From positions 273,747 through 337,746 of the forward strand of contig CAWBWB010000005.1 in the NCBI GenBank assembly GCA_963792495.1: a stretch of 64,000 nt of DNA, given 5' to 3'. Every line of letters begins with the position of its first letter. Position 1 is the stretch's first letter. A program made the position numbers and the translations under genes. Origin of the DNA: an uncultured Acidobacteriaceae bacterium. GTDB lineage: Bacteria; Acidobacteriota; Terriglobia; Terriglobales; Acidobacteriaceae. This document shows positions 7,481 to 51,378 of the stretch, one piece after another. The notes beneath the pieces were generated by a model, which was given only the letters and a program-made list of their open reading frames with translations, was not told the origin of the DNA and did not search any database.

Positions 7481-7678
7481 ATGGAAGCTGAGCTTATCTT
7501 TGAAATTGTGCAGGAGGCTGACGGTGGTTTCACTGCTGAGGCTCTTGGTGAGAGCATCTTTACGCAAGCCGATACGGTGGATGAGTTGAAGGCCAACGTG
7601 CGAGAGGCTGTGCAGGCTTTCTATTTTGATTCTGTGCCACCTGCGTCGATTCGATTTCAGCTCGAAGCATTCGCGTAA
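7481..7678 (+). CDS. HicB-like antitoxin-fold small protein, probably C-terminally truncated orphan
   Basis: ELIFEIVQEADGGFTAEALGESIFTQADTVDELKANVREAV; no hicA nearby. Confidence 0.65.
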   Translation: MEAELIFEIVQEADGGFTAEALGESIFTQADTVDELKANVREAVQAFYFDSVPPASIRFQLEAFA

Positions 7679-7708
7679 TTCTGACTTCGAAGTGCATACG
7701 AGGCGACC

Positions 7709-8251
7709 ATGGAGCACAATCTTGATCATGCAGTAGCTTTGTTGTCGCGTACGCCTGCGGCGTTGAATACTTTGCTGCGGGATTTGCCTTCGGCCTGGAC
7801 TGAAAGCAATGAGGGTGACGGTACGTGGAGTGCGCGGGAGGTGATTGCGCATCTGATTCACTGCGAGCATACGAACTGGGTGCCGCGAGCGAAGCGGATT
7901 CTGGAGTCGGGTGAGAGCAAGCCGTTTGACTCGCTGAATCGTGAGGCGCATCTCAAGGAGAATCCTGATACGCCGCTGCCGGAGTTGCTGGATGAGTTTG
8001 CCCGGCTGCGTGCGGCGAATCTTGAGGAGTTAAGAGCGCTTCAGATTGGGCCGCACGAGCTTGCGTTGAAGGGAAAACATCCCGCGCTGGGCTCGCTTAC
8101 GCTGGCGGAGCTGCTTTCAGCATGGACCGTGCATGACATGACGCACCTGCATCAGATTTCGCGGATTCTTGCGCATCAGTATCGCGAGGCGGCGGGGCCG
8201 TTTGCGCGATACCTCGGCGTGTTGAAGTGCGATGGGCACAGCGGATCGTGA
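7709..8251 (+). CDS. DinB-family protein
   Basis: WSAREVIAHL and HDMTHLHQI metal-binding His pattern. Confidence 0.85.
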   Translation: MEHNLDHAVALLSRTPAALNTLLRDLPSAWTESNEGDGTWSAREVIAHLIHCEHTNWVPRAKRILESGESKPFDSLNREAHLKENPDTPLPELLDEFARLRAANLEELRALQIGPHELALKGKHPALGSLTLAELLSAWTVHDMTHLHQISRILAHQYREAAGPFARYLGVLKCDGHSGS

Positions 8252-8279
8252 GCGCTTGGTGAAAGCTGAAAGCCATCAA

Positions 8280-8624
8280 CCTCAGGGCTAAAGCCCAGAT
8301 GCTTTTTGCTTGTCTTCCGGCACGACTCAACAGTTTGCTGAAAAAGTCAGTGTTTGCATTCGGAAGCCGCAAAACCATCCCTCAGCGGCTAAAGCCGCGT
8401 TTTATTTGCGGCATTTATGGCACGACTGAAGTCGTGCCCTTTCAAAGCTAAAACGGCGCGTGTTCGAAACCTGAGATTCGGTTTTGAATTTCTCAAGACA
8501 GAAAACCAGCCCTCAGCGGCTAAAGCCGCGTTTTCTTTGCGGCATTTATGGCACGACTGAAGTCGTGCCCTTTCAAAACATCGAGTTTTTCAGCAAGCTG
8601 TGAAGTCGTGCCCTGTTACAAAAC
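8280..8624. repeat. REP unit (CCTCAG.GGCTAAAGCC...GGCACGACT-GA-AGTCGTGCCC) split by an internal insertion
   Basis: Left half ends GGCACGACT at 8319-8327; right half resumes AAGTCGTGCCC at 8603; intact copies at 8371-8446 and 8502-8577. Confidence 0.8.
8330..8601. mobile_element. MITE-like element (~272 bp, no transposase) carrying two REP units
   Basis: Terminal inverted repeats ACAGTTTGCTGAAAAA (8330-8345) and TTTTTCAGCAAGCTGT (8586-8601), 15/16 match. Confidence 0.7.
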
Positions 8625-8651
8625 GCCGGGTGGTGGTTCGTCAGACTCTGC

Positions 8652-9284
8652 CTAGAGGCCGGATGGGAGATGCCAGTTGCGCCATACGCTGATGACGCGC
8701 AAGAGGAAGCAGGCGGTTCCGCCGATGAGCGCGGAGTAGGTGTCTTTCATGCCCAGCCTGCGGCAGAGAATCATGGTGGCGGCTCCGGCGAGAGCTGCGG
8801 TTGCGTAGATATCGGTCTGGAGAACGCGGGGTACGCGGGCGAGGCATATGTCGCGGATGGTGCCTCCGCCGACACCGGTGATGCCGCCGAGCATGACGGC
8901 TACGAGCGGCGACATTTTGCGCAGAAGAGCTTCTTCTGTTCCGGAGACGGCGAAGAGGGCGAGGCCGCCTGCATCGAGGACCATGATGAGCTGCTGCGGA
9001 ATCTCCTCCACATACCTGTGAAATAAGAAGGCGACAGCCGCGCCGGTGAAGGCTACGGCTGGATAGTGCCAGTTGCGCAAGGCGTTGGGAGGGGTTGCGC
9101 CGAGGAGCACGTCGCGGATGATGCCGCCGCCTACGGCTGTGGCGAAACCGAGGATGAGGATGCCGAGCAGATCGAGGTGATTGGCGAGCGCGGTGTTTGC
9201 GCCTTCGATGGCAAAGAGCAGCGTGCCGGCCAGGTCGACGAGATAGAGCATTCGCGTCGGCGAGAGCTGAAATTTCTTTGCCAT
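8652..9284 (-). CDS. TRIC cation channel-family / UPF0126 membrane protein
   Basis: DL.GT..FAIEG, TAVGGGIIRDVLLG..PP and repeat ITGVGGGTIRD; directly downstream of gcvT. Confidence 0.9.
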   Translation of the reverse strand: MAKKFQLSPTRMLYLVDLAGTLLFAIEGANTALANHLDLLGILILGFATAVGGGIIRDVLLGATPPNALRNWHYPAVAFTGAAVAFLFHRYVEEIPQQLIMVLDAGGLALFAVSGTEEALLRKMSPLVAVMLGGITGVGGGTIRDICLARVPRVLQTDIYATAALAGAATMILCRRLGMKDTYSALIGGTACFLLRVISVWRNWHLPSGL

Positions 9285-9308
9285 GCTATTGAAGATACAT
9301 GCCGGAGG

Positions 9309-48798: not shown

Positions 48799-49230
48799 AG
48801 TTGCCGCTGGAGAAAGCCGCCCGGATCTTGCTGGAGAGCACCTCTGCTCGCGTAAGTATAGAGCCGACGGCTCAAAAGCCAGCAGAATACAATGCAATTC
48901 CTCGTCGAGGTAGTACCCACACACCGCAGAAATATGAAGTACGATCCAGCTTCAGCACGCCGCTTCTTCGGGAACTCGCAACAAGGTAAATGCAGCCCCC
49001 CGATCCAACGTTTCATCGACTGAGCCTGTTGCCTTGTGGGAAGCAGATTCCACGAAGTCACGAAGAGCGGAGTCTTCCGCTACACAGGGAGCGTTTCGGA
49101 GGGCACTCAGGATGCCGGCACAGCTGCTGCCTTCACGTATGAGCTCGATTGTGGGCTGGGCTTTAGGGGAGAACGCTGTATCGGCAATTATATACTTGAC
49201 AAATCAAGTCAGGTCTCCTATTCTTAATAC

Positions 49231-50202
49231 ATGAGAGCACCCAAGACACTTCAAGAAGCCATCATCTACTTCGCAAATCCCGATAACTGCGTTGCCTACA
49301 TGGTTGACCATCGCTGGCCGAACGGCGTTGTTTGCCCGACATGTGGACGCCGGGATGTGACGTATCTGGCGACTCAGAAGAAGTGGCAGTGCAAGAGCGC
49401 CCATGCCAAGCGCCAGTTCTCCGCTAAGGTTGGAACGATCTTTGAAGATTCGCCCCTTGGACTTGAAAAGTGGCTTCCGGCAGTGTGGTTGATTGTGACC
49501 GCAAAGAACGGCATCAGCAGCATGGAGATTCACCGCTCCTTGGGAGTCACCCAAAAGACAGCATGGTTCATGCTCCATCGGATTCGTGAGGCCATGAAGA
49601 ACGGTTCCATCCTTAAGATGGGCGGAAACGATATGGGGCCGGTAGAGGTTGACGAGACCTTTGTTGGACCCAAGCCCCAGAAGATGCACCGCGAGCGCCG
49701 CCTGCGGATGCAGAGCGCAGAGAAGGGCAATCAGAAGACCATCGTCATGGGAATGCTGGACCGCGAAAGCCGCCAAGTTCGCGCCAAGGTGGTTCCCGAT
49801 GTGAAGCGCGAAACTCTTCAGTCGGAAATCCTGAAGCAGATTGAGAAGGGCTCTACCATCTACACCGATGGTTACCCCGCCTATGACCGGCTCGCCGCAC
49901 AAGAGTACATCCATGCGACCGTAAACCACATTGAAGAGTATGTGCGTGGGCAGGTCCACACTCAAGGCATAGAGAATTTCTGGTCGCTTCTGAAGCGGAC
50001 CTTGACCGGCACCTACGTTGCTGTTGAGCCTTTTCATCTTGATCGCTATGTCACCGAACAGGTATTCCGCTACAACAACCGCGCTACCAAGACCAACCCT
50101 CTCACCGATGCGGATCGGGTTGCCCTGCTTCTCTCACAAGTCGCAGGCCGTCGCCTCACCTATGCCGAGGTCACCGGCAAGGTTGGAGAAACGATCAACT
50201 AA
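49231..50202 (+). CDS. tnp: IS1595-family DDE transposase
   Basis: Zn-ribbon CPTC...C..H, HTH, VEVDET, YTDG, HTQGIENFWSLLKR. Confidence 0.95.
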   Translation: MRAPKTLQEAIIYFANPDNCVAYMVDHRWPNGVVCPTCGRRDVTYLATQKKWQCKSAHAKRQFSAKVGTIFEDSPLGLEKWLPAVWLIVTAKNGISSMEIHRSLGVTQKTAWFMLHRIREAMKNGSILKMGGNDMGPVEVDETFVGPKPQKMHRERRLRMQSAEKGNQKTIVMGMLDRESRQVRAKVVPDVKRETLQSEILKQIEKGSTIYTDGYPAYDRLAAQEYIHATVNHIEEYVRGQVHTQGIENFWSLLKRTLTGTYVAVEPFHLDRYVTEQVFRYNNRATKTNPLTDADRVALLLSQVAGRRLTYAEVTGKVGETIN

Positions 50203-50402
50203 CCCTTGGCGCTTGAAACGAGGCCGGAAGCGGAAGGTTGAACCTTAGCCTTCCGCCCCCGCTTGCGTTCGCCCCTGGCCGCGCGCTCCGCTGTGTTGGC
50301 CTGTACCTTCGCATCTACATTCGCCTTCACCGTCGCAGGATCGGCGCGAAGGATTGTGGCCATTGCGTCGTTGAATTGGTGGAATTCTTGACTCGTTTTC
50401 AT
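50199..50402 (-). CDS. Small basic passenger protein (67 aa)
   Basis: ATGA-coupled to the upstream DUF3800-like gene; convergent overlap with the transposase stop. Confidence 0.65.
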   Translation of the reverse strand: MKTSQEFHQFNDAMATILRADPATVKANVDAKVQANTAERAARGERKRGRKAKVQPSASGLVSSAKG

Positions 50403-51304
50403 TGCTTCACCTTCTTCGGCTTGAATGTAGCGCGCTTCGCTCTCTTCTTCACATGGCTCGGGTGCGTTTCAAAGAACTTCTTCGCAACAGTATCGATGAA
50501 TTTGAAACTCGACGGATTCACTATCCAGCAATGGTTTAGATCGTGGCCGCTCACTAGCGCAGCGGTGACGCCATCGCTGGAATAGTATCGCTCGAAAGTG
50601 TTCAATCGGGTCCGAGCGAGCCCGTTGTCAAGACTTGGGAAGGCAATGTGCGCACTGCGCACGCAACGCTGGACAATTCCAGCGACCAGATCGGCTGGCT
50701 GGAGTAATGTCGTGCACTTGGGTTCAAAGCTGAATCCTCGAAGCCCGCTCAGTGTGCTTGTCTTGTCGTCAAGATCGGCACATATGTTCATGATCTCGTG
50801 TTCTCGATCACCCTTTTCGAATACATAGTTTACTTTTTGTTGCTGTCTTTTCTCATTTATCAGCATGGTCTCGACGAATGCAAAGGCCGCATAAGCACAC
50901 CCTGAAAACGCCGGTCCAATTTCATTCGCATACGCGACTTCATTGAGTGTCTTATTGAAGGCAGCCACCTCTAGAGACGCACTTACGATGCAACAACCGG
51001 GCCGGTTCACTATCGCCGCGAGCCTTTTGAGAAAGTCTGCTCGCTTGGTCTCATTCCACCCACGAGACCCCAATTTGCAATGGTTGGTTCCGAAGTCCTT
51101 CAGGTGGAATATCTGACCTCCGGTGGCTAGTTCCCAGTCTCGCTCAATGTCCTCGCAGATAGCGGAATCTGCCAAAAATCCCCCGACAGTTATAACGGGG
51201 CAATCGTTCTCATCCCCCGACTTGTCATAGTACACACGGAGAGACACAAGGATTCCCTTCCGAGAGCGACCGAAGGCGATACTCGCCAATTCACGGGCGC
51301 TCAC
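50399..51304 (-). CDS. DUF3800-like (RNase H-fold) passenger protein
   Basis: N-terminal VYYDKSG and late LLQPADLVAG, the two acidic motifs of this family. Confidence 0.7.
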   Translation of the reverse strand: MSARELASIAFGRSRKGILVSLRVYYDKSGDENDCPVITVGGFLADSAICEDIERDWELATGGQIFHLKDFGTNHCKLGSRGWNETKRADFLKRLAAIVNRPGCCIVSASLEVAAFNKTLNEVAYANEIGPAFSGCAYAAFAFVETMLINEKRQQQKVNYVFEKGDREHEIMNICADLDDKTSTLSGLRGFSFEPKCTTLLQPADLVAGIVQRCVRSAHIAFPSLDNGLARTRLNTFERYYSSDGVTAALVSGHDLNHCWIVNPSSFKFIDTVAKKFFETHPSHVKKRAKRATFKPKKVKQ

Positions 51305-51378
51305 AGCACACCCCCTTCACACTCTTTTGGAGATGATTCGTCAAGTATATATTTGCCGCTGTATCTATCTGAAAATAA

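Follow-up and report, generated by a model that had tools for sequence, protein, structure and literature searches.

A probable IS5-derived MITE that inserts at REP hairpin tips and carries REPs in an Acidobacteriaceae genome

A 272-bp segment of bacterial DNA, located at positions 8330-8601 of the 64,000-nt window (the whole stretch of DNA analyzed here), is best explained, at a probability that we place at roughly 0.8, as a MITE derived from an IS5-family (DDE) IS, which lands in the tips of REP hairpins and itself carries REPs. The window belongs to an uncultured Acidobacteriaceae bacterium (GCA_963792495.1, contig CAWBWB010000005.1, positions 273,747-337,746) whose 4.8-Mb genome is assembled in 16 contigs, denoted below by the prefix C; in this notation the window is C5:273747-337746. 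The spread of REPs is usually attributed to RAYT tyrosine transposases, and ISs are, to our knowledge, known only as users of REPs as landing pads. The element described here would offer a second route, concrete and open to testing, by which REPs are amplified and mosaic repeat clusters grow, as well as a natural system for distinguishing hairpin sensing by a DDE transposase from the reading of a palindromic sequence alone. For the purpose of annotation, nested repeats of this type in Acidobacteriaceae are probably best labeled as IS5-derived MITEs, not as new RNA genes.

In the mechanism that we propose, a transposase encoded elsewhere (seen in a congener and absent here) would bind the 19-nt inverted ends and insert the element at the palindromic sequence GRCT-NN-AGYC, with duplication of the central NN (hyphens in target sites set off this dinucleotide). 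The 10-mer would coincide with the tip of REP hairpins, namely the last stem pairs and the tetraloop, so that insertions would fall at REP centers. With a MITE body made of one or two REPs, each transposition would copy REPs and supply new hairpin-tip targets, from which nested, clustered repeats would arise. In this genome the transposase would by now have been lost, leaving fossil copies behind.

Anatomy of a split REP and its insert

The insert at 8330-8601 splits the second hairpin of a host REP within its tetraloop, in line with the sequence-only reading, which had described a REP cut at its center by an element of ~272 bp. The features of the locus, in window coordinates, are as follows.

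7709..8251, (+) strand: upstream gene, DinB_2 family protein (PF12867, 58.8 bits)
8280-8329 and 8602-8623, (+) strand: host REP, both parts
8280..8318, (+) strand: left part of the host REP, with CCTCAG prefix, hairpin 1 and a 22-nt variable spacer (8297-8318)
8285-8296, (+) strand: host REP hairpin 1, GGGCTAAAGCCC (GGGC-TAAA-GCCC)
8319..8329, (+) strand: host hairpin 2, left stem GGCACGAC (8319-8326) and left loop portion TCA
8330..8601, (+) strand: whole MITE, 272 bp, no coding capacity
8330..8348, (+) strand: left terminal inverted repeat, ACAGTTTGCTGAAAAAGTC
8379..8446, (+) strand: cargo REP 1, subtype A (GCGGC-TAAA-GCCGC; GGCACGAC-TGAA-GTCGTGCC; tag CTTTCAAA)
8447..8509, (+) strand: 63-nt spacer module with its own small hairpin, TTCGAAACC..GGTTTTGAA
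8510..8577, (+) strand: cargo REP 2, subtype A, in the same orientation as cargo REP 1 and the host REP
8583..8601, (+) strand: right terminal inverted repeat, GAGTTTTTCAGCAAGCTGT
8602..8623, (+) strand: host hairpin 2, right part, consisting of GA and A, stem GTCGTGCC (8605-8612) and tag CTGTTACAAAA
8652..9284, (-) strand: downstream gene, Gly_transporter (UPF0126) membrane protein (PF03458, 154 bits)

The left part of the host REP has the architecture of intact solo REPs found elsewhere in the genome (C1:745235, C14:340410, C14:1243175, C15:107207 and C2:325808). What had been described as a junction ambiguous by 1-2 nt is a 2-bp target duplication, albeit an imperfect one in this copy: the left copy is the CA of the loop portion TCA (T plus CA), and the right copy is the GA at 8602. 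The inverted ends, earlier given as 15/16, extend to 19 nt with 17 complementary positions (ACAGTTTGCTGAAAAAGTC and GAGTTTTTCAGCAAGCTGT); when the host stems are included, the inverted repeat reaches 37 nt at 84%. Between them the order is left end and leader (8330-8378), cargo REP 1, spacer, cargo REP 2 and right end. Two direct repeats, 8359-8446 and 8490-8577, are 92% identical over 88 nt at a spacing of 131 bp, and each contains a two-hairpin REP of 68 nt. The spacer module plus one REP makes up a 131-bp unit, which is present in arrays outside MITEs as well; beyond the window, the module is found at C5:90825-91288, C16:1090-1248 and C1:172309-172691.

Folded as single-stranded DNA, the whole structure is predicted to form one long stem, made of the host stem and the element ends, with the REP hairpins inside (computed energy -82 kcal/mol, z = -9.1). 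The hairpin GGCACGACTGAAGTCGTGCC is found four times on the two strands of the window, where 0.01 occurrences would be expected. REP and MITE are situated between the stop codons of the convergent DinB_2 and Gly_transporter genes. The sole open reading frame that overlaps the MITE (8097-8378, minus strand, 93 aa) extends into the neighboring gene and the repeat and is mechanical. A structured RNA was also considered and rejected, the interval 7600-9300 giving no Rfam match at E <= 1. The element thus consists of inverted ends around a short, noncoding body, of which dispersed copies exist in different flanks, as is characteristic of MITEs.

The two internal REPs had been assigned to the family of their host. 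This stands at the level of the superfamily, as does their 131-bp spacing: host and cargo REPs share an identical second hairpin. They are nonetheless different subtypes, the host having a GGGC hairpin 1 and the tag CTGTTACAAA, and the cargo a GCGGC hairpin 1 and the tag CTTTCAAA. Both are short, GC-rich, imperfect palindromes that are extragenic and present in high copy, as expected of REPs; the genome contains 152 hairpin tips with 8-bp stems and 86 two-hairpin units. A conserved GTAG (or CGTC) tetranucleotide at one end has been described for REPs (Di Nocera 2013, PMC3733652). It is absent next to the hairpins here, where the tags CTTTCAAA and CTGTTACAAA (reverse complement GTAAC) are found instead; such an end is a marker of a superfamily and is not needed for REP status.

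A dispersed family and its autonomous relative

The element belongs to a family, as can be directly observed in the genome, where the pair of ends is far from unique. About 37-40 end matches (about 37 by the count that first addressed this point) and a module map of 71 loci include nine complete left-right copies of 142-529 bp, in addition to arrays, remnants and solo ends, and the ends recur genus- and family-wide. Five of the complete copies measure 142 bp and contain one REP, two measure 270-272 bp and contain two, and the remaining ones are 308 and 529 bp long. Every one of the nine sits in the loop of hairpin 2 of a host REP, as had been expected of a non-autonomous, REP-targeting and REP-carrying element whose copies should be flanked by REP centers. 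Seven hosts have a GGCACGAC-type stem and two a CAGTGGCC-type stem; on the left all nine copies are flanked by hairpin 1, spacer, stem and T-N-A, and on the right by R-A-A, the complementary stem and the tag. The spacers of the nine host REPs all differ and are unrelated, and therefore the hosts are separate REPs, not copies of one composite.

The one-REP copies are mutually 92-96% identical, in the REP as well as in the ends. Two two-REP siblings of the window copy, each in another host REP, lie at C14:1163994-1164263 (90% identical) and C14:319081-319388 (88% identical). In general, the copies in this genome are orphaned fossils, 88-96% identical and without a transposase. Recombination also reshapes the MITE loci, as is evident from the remnants, solo ends, REP-plus-spacer arrays and a tandem array of 237-bp units at C4:50005-51034, whose three to four units each comprise a MITE and one CAGTGGCC-type REP; this array implies amplification of MITE-bearing REPs by unequal recombination. 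Several MITE loci have a further palindromic repeat, GGTATCCC(A/C)GGTCTC...GAGACC(T/G)GGGGCACCC, next to or within them, namely at C14:143197-143230 and flanking C14:1163994 and C1:423539 on the right; in another genome, the outer MITE of the nested locus G015:C18 lies in a CCGGTCT/AGACCGG palindrome of the same kind.

A pattern scan with one genome per species recovered the ends in at least 120 loci of Acidobacteriaceae and Terriglobia, including Terracidiphilus, Telmatobacter, Granulicella and others, and matching ends number in the hundreds across the family. The end pairs are mostly 100-250 bp apart. Three pairs, 1.3-1.6 kb apart, enclose an open reading frame of 359-370 aa with the Pfam domains DUF772 and DDE_Tnp_1. 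Against the NCBIfam model NF033581 (IS5 family, cut-off 140 bits), the transposase from the scan scores 225 bits and that of genome G017 250 bits; the IS1182 model gives 195-200 on these proteins, under its cut-off of 270. The earlier suggestion of IS5/IS1182-type ends has thus proved right, with a partner transposase above the IS5-family threshold. The exact 19-nt end motif also appears on Nitrospira-binned contigs (L029, L033, L051, L078 and L085) and in a Deltaproteobacteria MAG (L096), occurrences that could be due to horizontal transfer or to binning error.

Intact IS5-family elements are located at G017:C8:119511-120786 (1276 bp), L080:2571-3872 and L110:1413-2737. The autonomous IS that the sequence-only reading had called for is therefore present in relatives, and it is absent from the window genome. 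G017 is a congener, or sister species, of the window genome. The ends of its IS (left, ACAGCTTGCTGAAAAAGTC; right, GATTTTTTCAGCAAGCTGT / TTTTTCAGCAAGCTGT) agree with those of the window copy at 18 of 19 positions both on the left (ACAGTTTGCTGAAAAAGTC versus ACAGCTTGCTGAAAAAGTC) and on the right (GAGTTTTTCAGCAAGCTGT versus GATTTTTTCAGCAAGCTGT), and some copies in G000 match its left end at 19/19. MITE and IS share no more than the 19 nt of the left end and about 27 nt on the right. The IS occupies the same type of site as the window MITE, in the context CCCTCAGGGGCTAAAGCTCC-N20-GGCACGAC TGA-IS-GAA GTCGTGCC CTTTCA, with a GA duplication; the L080 and L110 elements lie in the loops of REP hairpin 1, with a TC duplication. 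At 1276-1325 bp, with 19-nt ends and a 2-bp duplication at CT-NN-AG, these partners have an IS5-type layout. Such length, ends and duplication are typical of IS5 subgroups as listed in ISfinder. A transposase of this lineage probably moved the particular copies seen here, given the match of ends and sites.

In the window genome, tblastn with the IS proteins found no partner transposase, and none of the local ISs has the MITE ends. Candidate partners of other families were considered and rejected. An IS630/Tc1-like partner, an idea prompted by the CAGT...AAAAAG ends, is contradicted by a genome without a DDE_3 gene and by the unrelated IS630 ends of relatives. The IS1595-type element in the window (49175-51365) has ends (GGGGAGAACGCTGTATCGGCAA...) unrelated to the MITE, and neither a 721-bp IS1595-family IS nor a 1039-bp rve IS carries the MITE ends. 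As an observation in its own right, the 721-bp IS (IS1016-like; ends GGGGCTGTCCTAGATAACTAGC, 226-aa transposase, AT-rich flanks) looks recently active, being present in 12 copies that are at least 98.6% identical: C1:77165-77885, C1:236516, C1:575003, C1:765725, C2:192837, C5:243503, C5:252768, C9:40107, C13:23198, C14:1043309, C14:1155717 and C14:1173907.

Target choice, nesting and the origin of the cargo

Across 206 ends from other genomes, the half-site consensus is G(84%) R C(85%) T(83%) N N, which yields the target GRCT-NN-AGYC, with the 10-mer core GRCTNNAGYC (e.g., GACTGAAGTC). A 2-bp duplication is present in 30 of 44 complete pairs from other genomes (shuffle mean 9.4, maximum 20), and within orientation classes in 25 of 29 insertions outside this genome (p = 5e-5). 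The duplication is thus observed family-wide; among the local copies it matches in 4 of 9, which is chance level, the window copy with its CA/GA being imperfect. A model with a 3-bp TNA duplication fits 1 of the 44 pairs and was rejected in favor of 2 bp.

These data bear on the possibility that the copies spread without any transposase, through gene conversion or recombination between REPs whose halves served as short homology arms, or, in a variant, as a BIME-like mosaic whose modules were assembled by slippage and unequal crossing-over. We regard such a history as highly improbable. It would fit a genome that lacks the transposase and has only four matching duplications among nine copies, as well as the active recombination indicated by the tandem 237-bp and 131-bp arrays, solo ends and deletions between similar hairpins. 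It also predicts a co-orientation of cargo and host REPs, which is seen in 17 of 19 callable insertions (p = 7e-4; the set takes in all nine complete copies and loci L004, L005, L019, L024, L049, L070, L075, L088 and L092). Yet the available homology arms amount to just 8-20 bp, the host spacers are unrelated, and non-REP sites hold insertions as well. Moreover, the ends are those of a bona fide IS5-family IS (18/19 each) found in the same type of site with a clean duplication, and the duplication is real elsewhere (25/29).

Insertion by an IS5-type transposase being the preferred reading, what does the enzyme recognize? The genome contains 16,587 CTNNAG sites, of which 152 (0.9%) are tips of long hairpins. 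Among sites with the full 10-mer core, 95 of 487 (20%) are long hairpins, rising to 69 of 156 (44%) outside long open frames. All nine local hosts are long hairpins (p between 4e-7 and 6e-4, the latter against the 44% expectation). REP tips are therefore preferred beyond the core sequence, and the core accounts for much of the bias; much of the REP preference could be a sequence preference for the 10-bp palindrome found at REP tips.

Taken further, this leads to an account in which the REP association is incidental: the transposase would read the 10-bp GRCT NN AGYC as a duplex and sense no hairpin or cruciform, REP tips being the commonest sites that it tolerates. We consider this possible, though we lean against it; it would refine the targeting and is compatible with the identity of the MITE. 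Other IS5/PIF-type enzymes prefer short palindromes. The information content at the target lies mainly in positions -6 to -3 (G, R, C, T), and the outer stem positions are only GC-rich; REP-type hairpins already make up 44% of the core sites that fall outside long open frames; and insertions occur at weak or non-REP palindromes (G015:C275 with CT-AT-AG, the outer site of G015:C18 with CT-GG-AG, L052, L103 and L122). A cousin IS in G005 (L146-L151; six identical 1288-bp copies, ends GCAGTGTGCTGAAAAAGTC), with a transposase that is 46% identical, is inserted at plain C-TA-G in all six cases and never in a REP, which makes it a natural contrast for studying target choice. Against a purely duplex-based choice, at least 6 of 8 stem positions are complementary in 9 of 9 local hosts and in 27 of 44 elsewhere, and the intact ISs of G017, L080 and L110 all lie within REP loops. 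The hairpin itself, and not merely the 10-mer, may accordingly be what is recognized.

A more far-reaching version of the preferred reading is tentative, and we would not bet on it: an Acidobacteriaceae lineage of IS5 transposases may be specialized on REP tips and sense structure or strand asymmetry, with MITEs as the main vehicle of a REP subfamily in a self-seeding, RAYT-independent loop. The co-orientation of cargo and host is not predicted by a symmetric DDE target; if the extended version were true, sensing of structure or strand asymmetry would account for it, and a DDE transposon would amplify REPs without RAYTs and build nested repeat clusters.

Nesting has been directly observed, in agreement with the earlier proposal that the element creates its own future targets. 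The two hairpin tips of cargo REP 1 present CTNNAG sites as potential targets, and the 272-bp window copy has four target-like hairpin tips compared to 0.10 per kb genome-wide. Four nested MITEs occur in other genomes (G015:C18, L039, L074 and L084); in three, the inner copy splits the hairpin loop of a cargo REP of the outer copy, and in L084 the host is a short GGC/GCC palindrome. At G015:C18 another MITE, flanked by a GA duplication, interrupts the loop of a cargo hairpin 2, and this locus (L019) forms a clean paralogous empty/filled pair with the uninterrupted MITE at L038:4200-4362.

MITE-free states of the kind that the earlier reading had proposed to look for are represented by this pair and by one orthologous REP in G013, the closest relative of the window genome. 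For the window locus itself, no empty site was found: G013 lacks the whole segment, and the metagenome pattern scans contained no near strain. In G013 the stop codons of the DinB_2 and Gly_transporter genes overlap (CTAG, L007 = G013:C2:617566/617567) with no repeat between them, which makes the whole 407-bp segment 8245-8651 lineage-specific, including ~35 and ~30 nt outside the REP. Among the G013 sites orthologous to the eight other copies, five have neither REP nor MITE, and one is informative: the counterpart of C14:142952 is an uninterrupted REP with the same hairpin 1 and position and a different hairpin-2 stem.

How the cargo came to reside in the MITE can be addressed through the distribution of REP subtypes. 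Among 50 cargo-type REPs (A, hairpin 1 GCGGC), 33 adjoin MITE ends and three more lie in spacer arrays; among B-type REPs (hairpin 1 GGGGC), 1 of 34 adjoins a MITE end. The enrichment of one subtype in MITEs is a matter of direct observation. One could suppose that a RAYT system inserted the REPs later into a minimal palindrome of left and right ends, the MITE being a target of REPs and not their vehicle. A precedent exists in REPs enclosed by palindromes that are not known in an empty form (PMC3733652), the MITEs of different genomes carry the REP flavor of their own genome, and three RAYT genes above the NF047646 cut-off are present here (C14:1343099-1343715, C14:1251402-1251893 and C16:19872-20462), one of them, C14:1343130-1343622, flanked by REP hairpins at 1343099 and 1343696. 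Even so, later insertion appears improbable. No REP-free, end-to-end element is seen among the nine local and ~41 foreign MITEs, and the foreign ones without a strict hairpin-tip motif, roughly half, still span 120-250 bp. A-type REPs are mostly MITE-linked. The two-REP form recurs in three different hosts, and the one-REP copies are 92-96% identical throughout, over REP and ends alike, so the REPs moved together with the ends. These observations suggest that the cargo REPs were captured by the MITE. In the RAYT gene at C14 1343099-1343715, the stop-free frame continues through a REP (...TAKAVPFQNK...).

With RAYT genes in the genome, the MITE represents a second, additional route of REP amplification and no replacement for RAYTs. 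Of the RAYT-independent dispersal that the sequence-only reading had envisaged, the additional route therefore stands and the notion of a substitute does not.

Relation to known REP-associated elements

REP-targeting ISs are known in the IS3, IS110, IS4, IS256 and IS5 families (PMC1525189). In the literature that we searched, we did not find a description of an IS5-family IS/MITE pair at hairpin tips with MITEs made of REPs. The closest parallels are IS1397 and ISKpn1 (IS3 family), in which, as here, a DDE element sits in a REP hairpin loop with a short duplication; they use the loops of enterobacterial BIME palindromic units, and their specificity resides in the transposase (PMC1525189). They differ in family (IS3, not IS5), in being autonomous ISs and in the phylum of the host, and the same source mentions no REP-carrying MITE derivative of them. 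Among IS5-family elements, ISNm1106 and IS1106 of Neisseria resemble the partner described here in their association with small repeats, a partial ("type 2") REP association in 4/7 and 7/14 copies (Tobes and Pareja 2006, PMC1525189), and IS1106-related MITE entries exist in ISfinder (PMC11602168). Going by their description, they are set apart by the lack of hairpin-tip CT-NN-AG insertion and of REP cargo.

Site-specific insertion into REPs is likewise practiced by IS110/IS1111 elements such as IS621, ISPpu9, ISPpu10 and ISPa11. These rely on a DEDD recombinase, guided by a bridge or seek RNA, and on no DDE chemistry, and they lack long terminal inverted repeats (PMC11208160, PMC11187229). In contrast, the MITE is bounded by 19-nt inverted ends, its partner is an IS5 DDE element, and its region is without an Rfam match.

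REPIN/RAYT systems (PMC3116915) share with this genome the short, GC-rich, extragenic palindromes in high copy and the presence of RAYT genes. REPINs consist of two inverted REPs, whose movement is ascribed to a Y1 HUH transposase (PMC3116915). A reading of the present repeats as REPINs was rejected: the two cargo REPs, set 131 bp apart, are not inverted but point in one direction, which is also that of the host REP, and, unlike REPINs, they form direct repeats within IS5-type ends. Finally, in Anabaena variabilis and Halothiobacillus neapolitanus, REP dimers lie in long palindromes that are not known in a REP-free form (Di Nocera et al. 2013, PMC3733652). These dimers were interpreted as REPs inserted into palindromic targets, with no transposase partner identified (PMC3733652). 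Their REPs are framed by inverted arms much as in the end-REP-end arrangement seen here; unlike in those dimers, the arms of the present element are the ends of an IS5-family IS.
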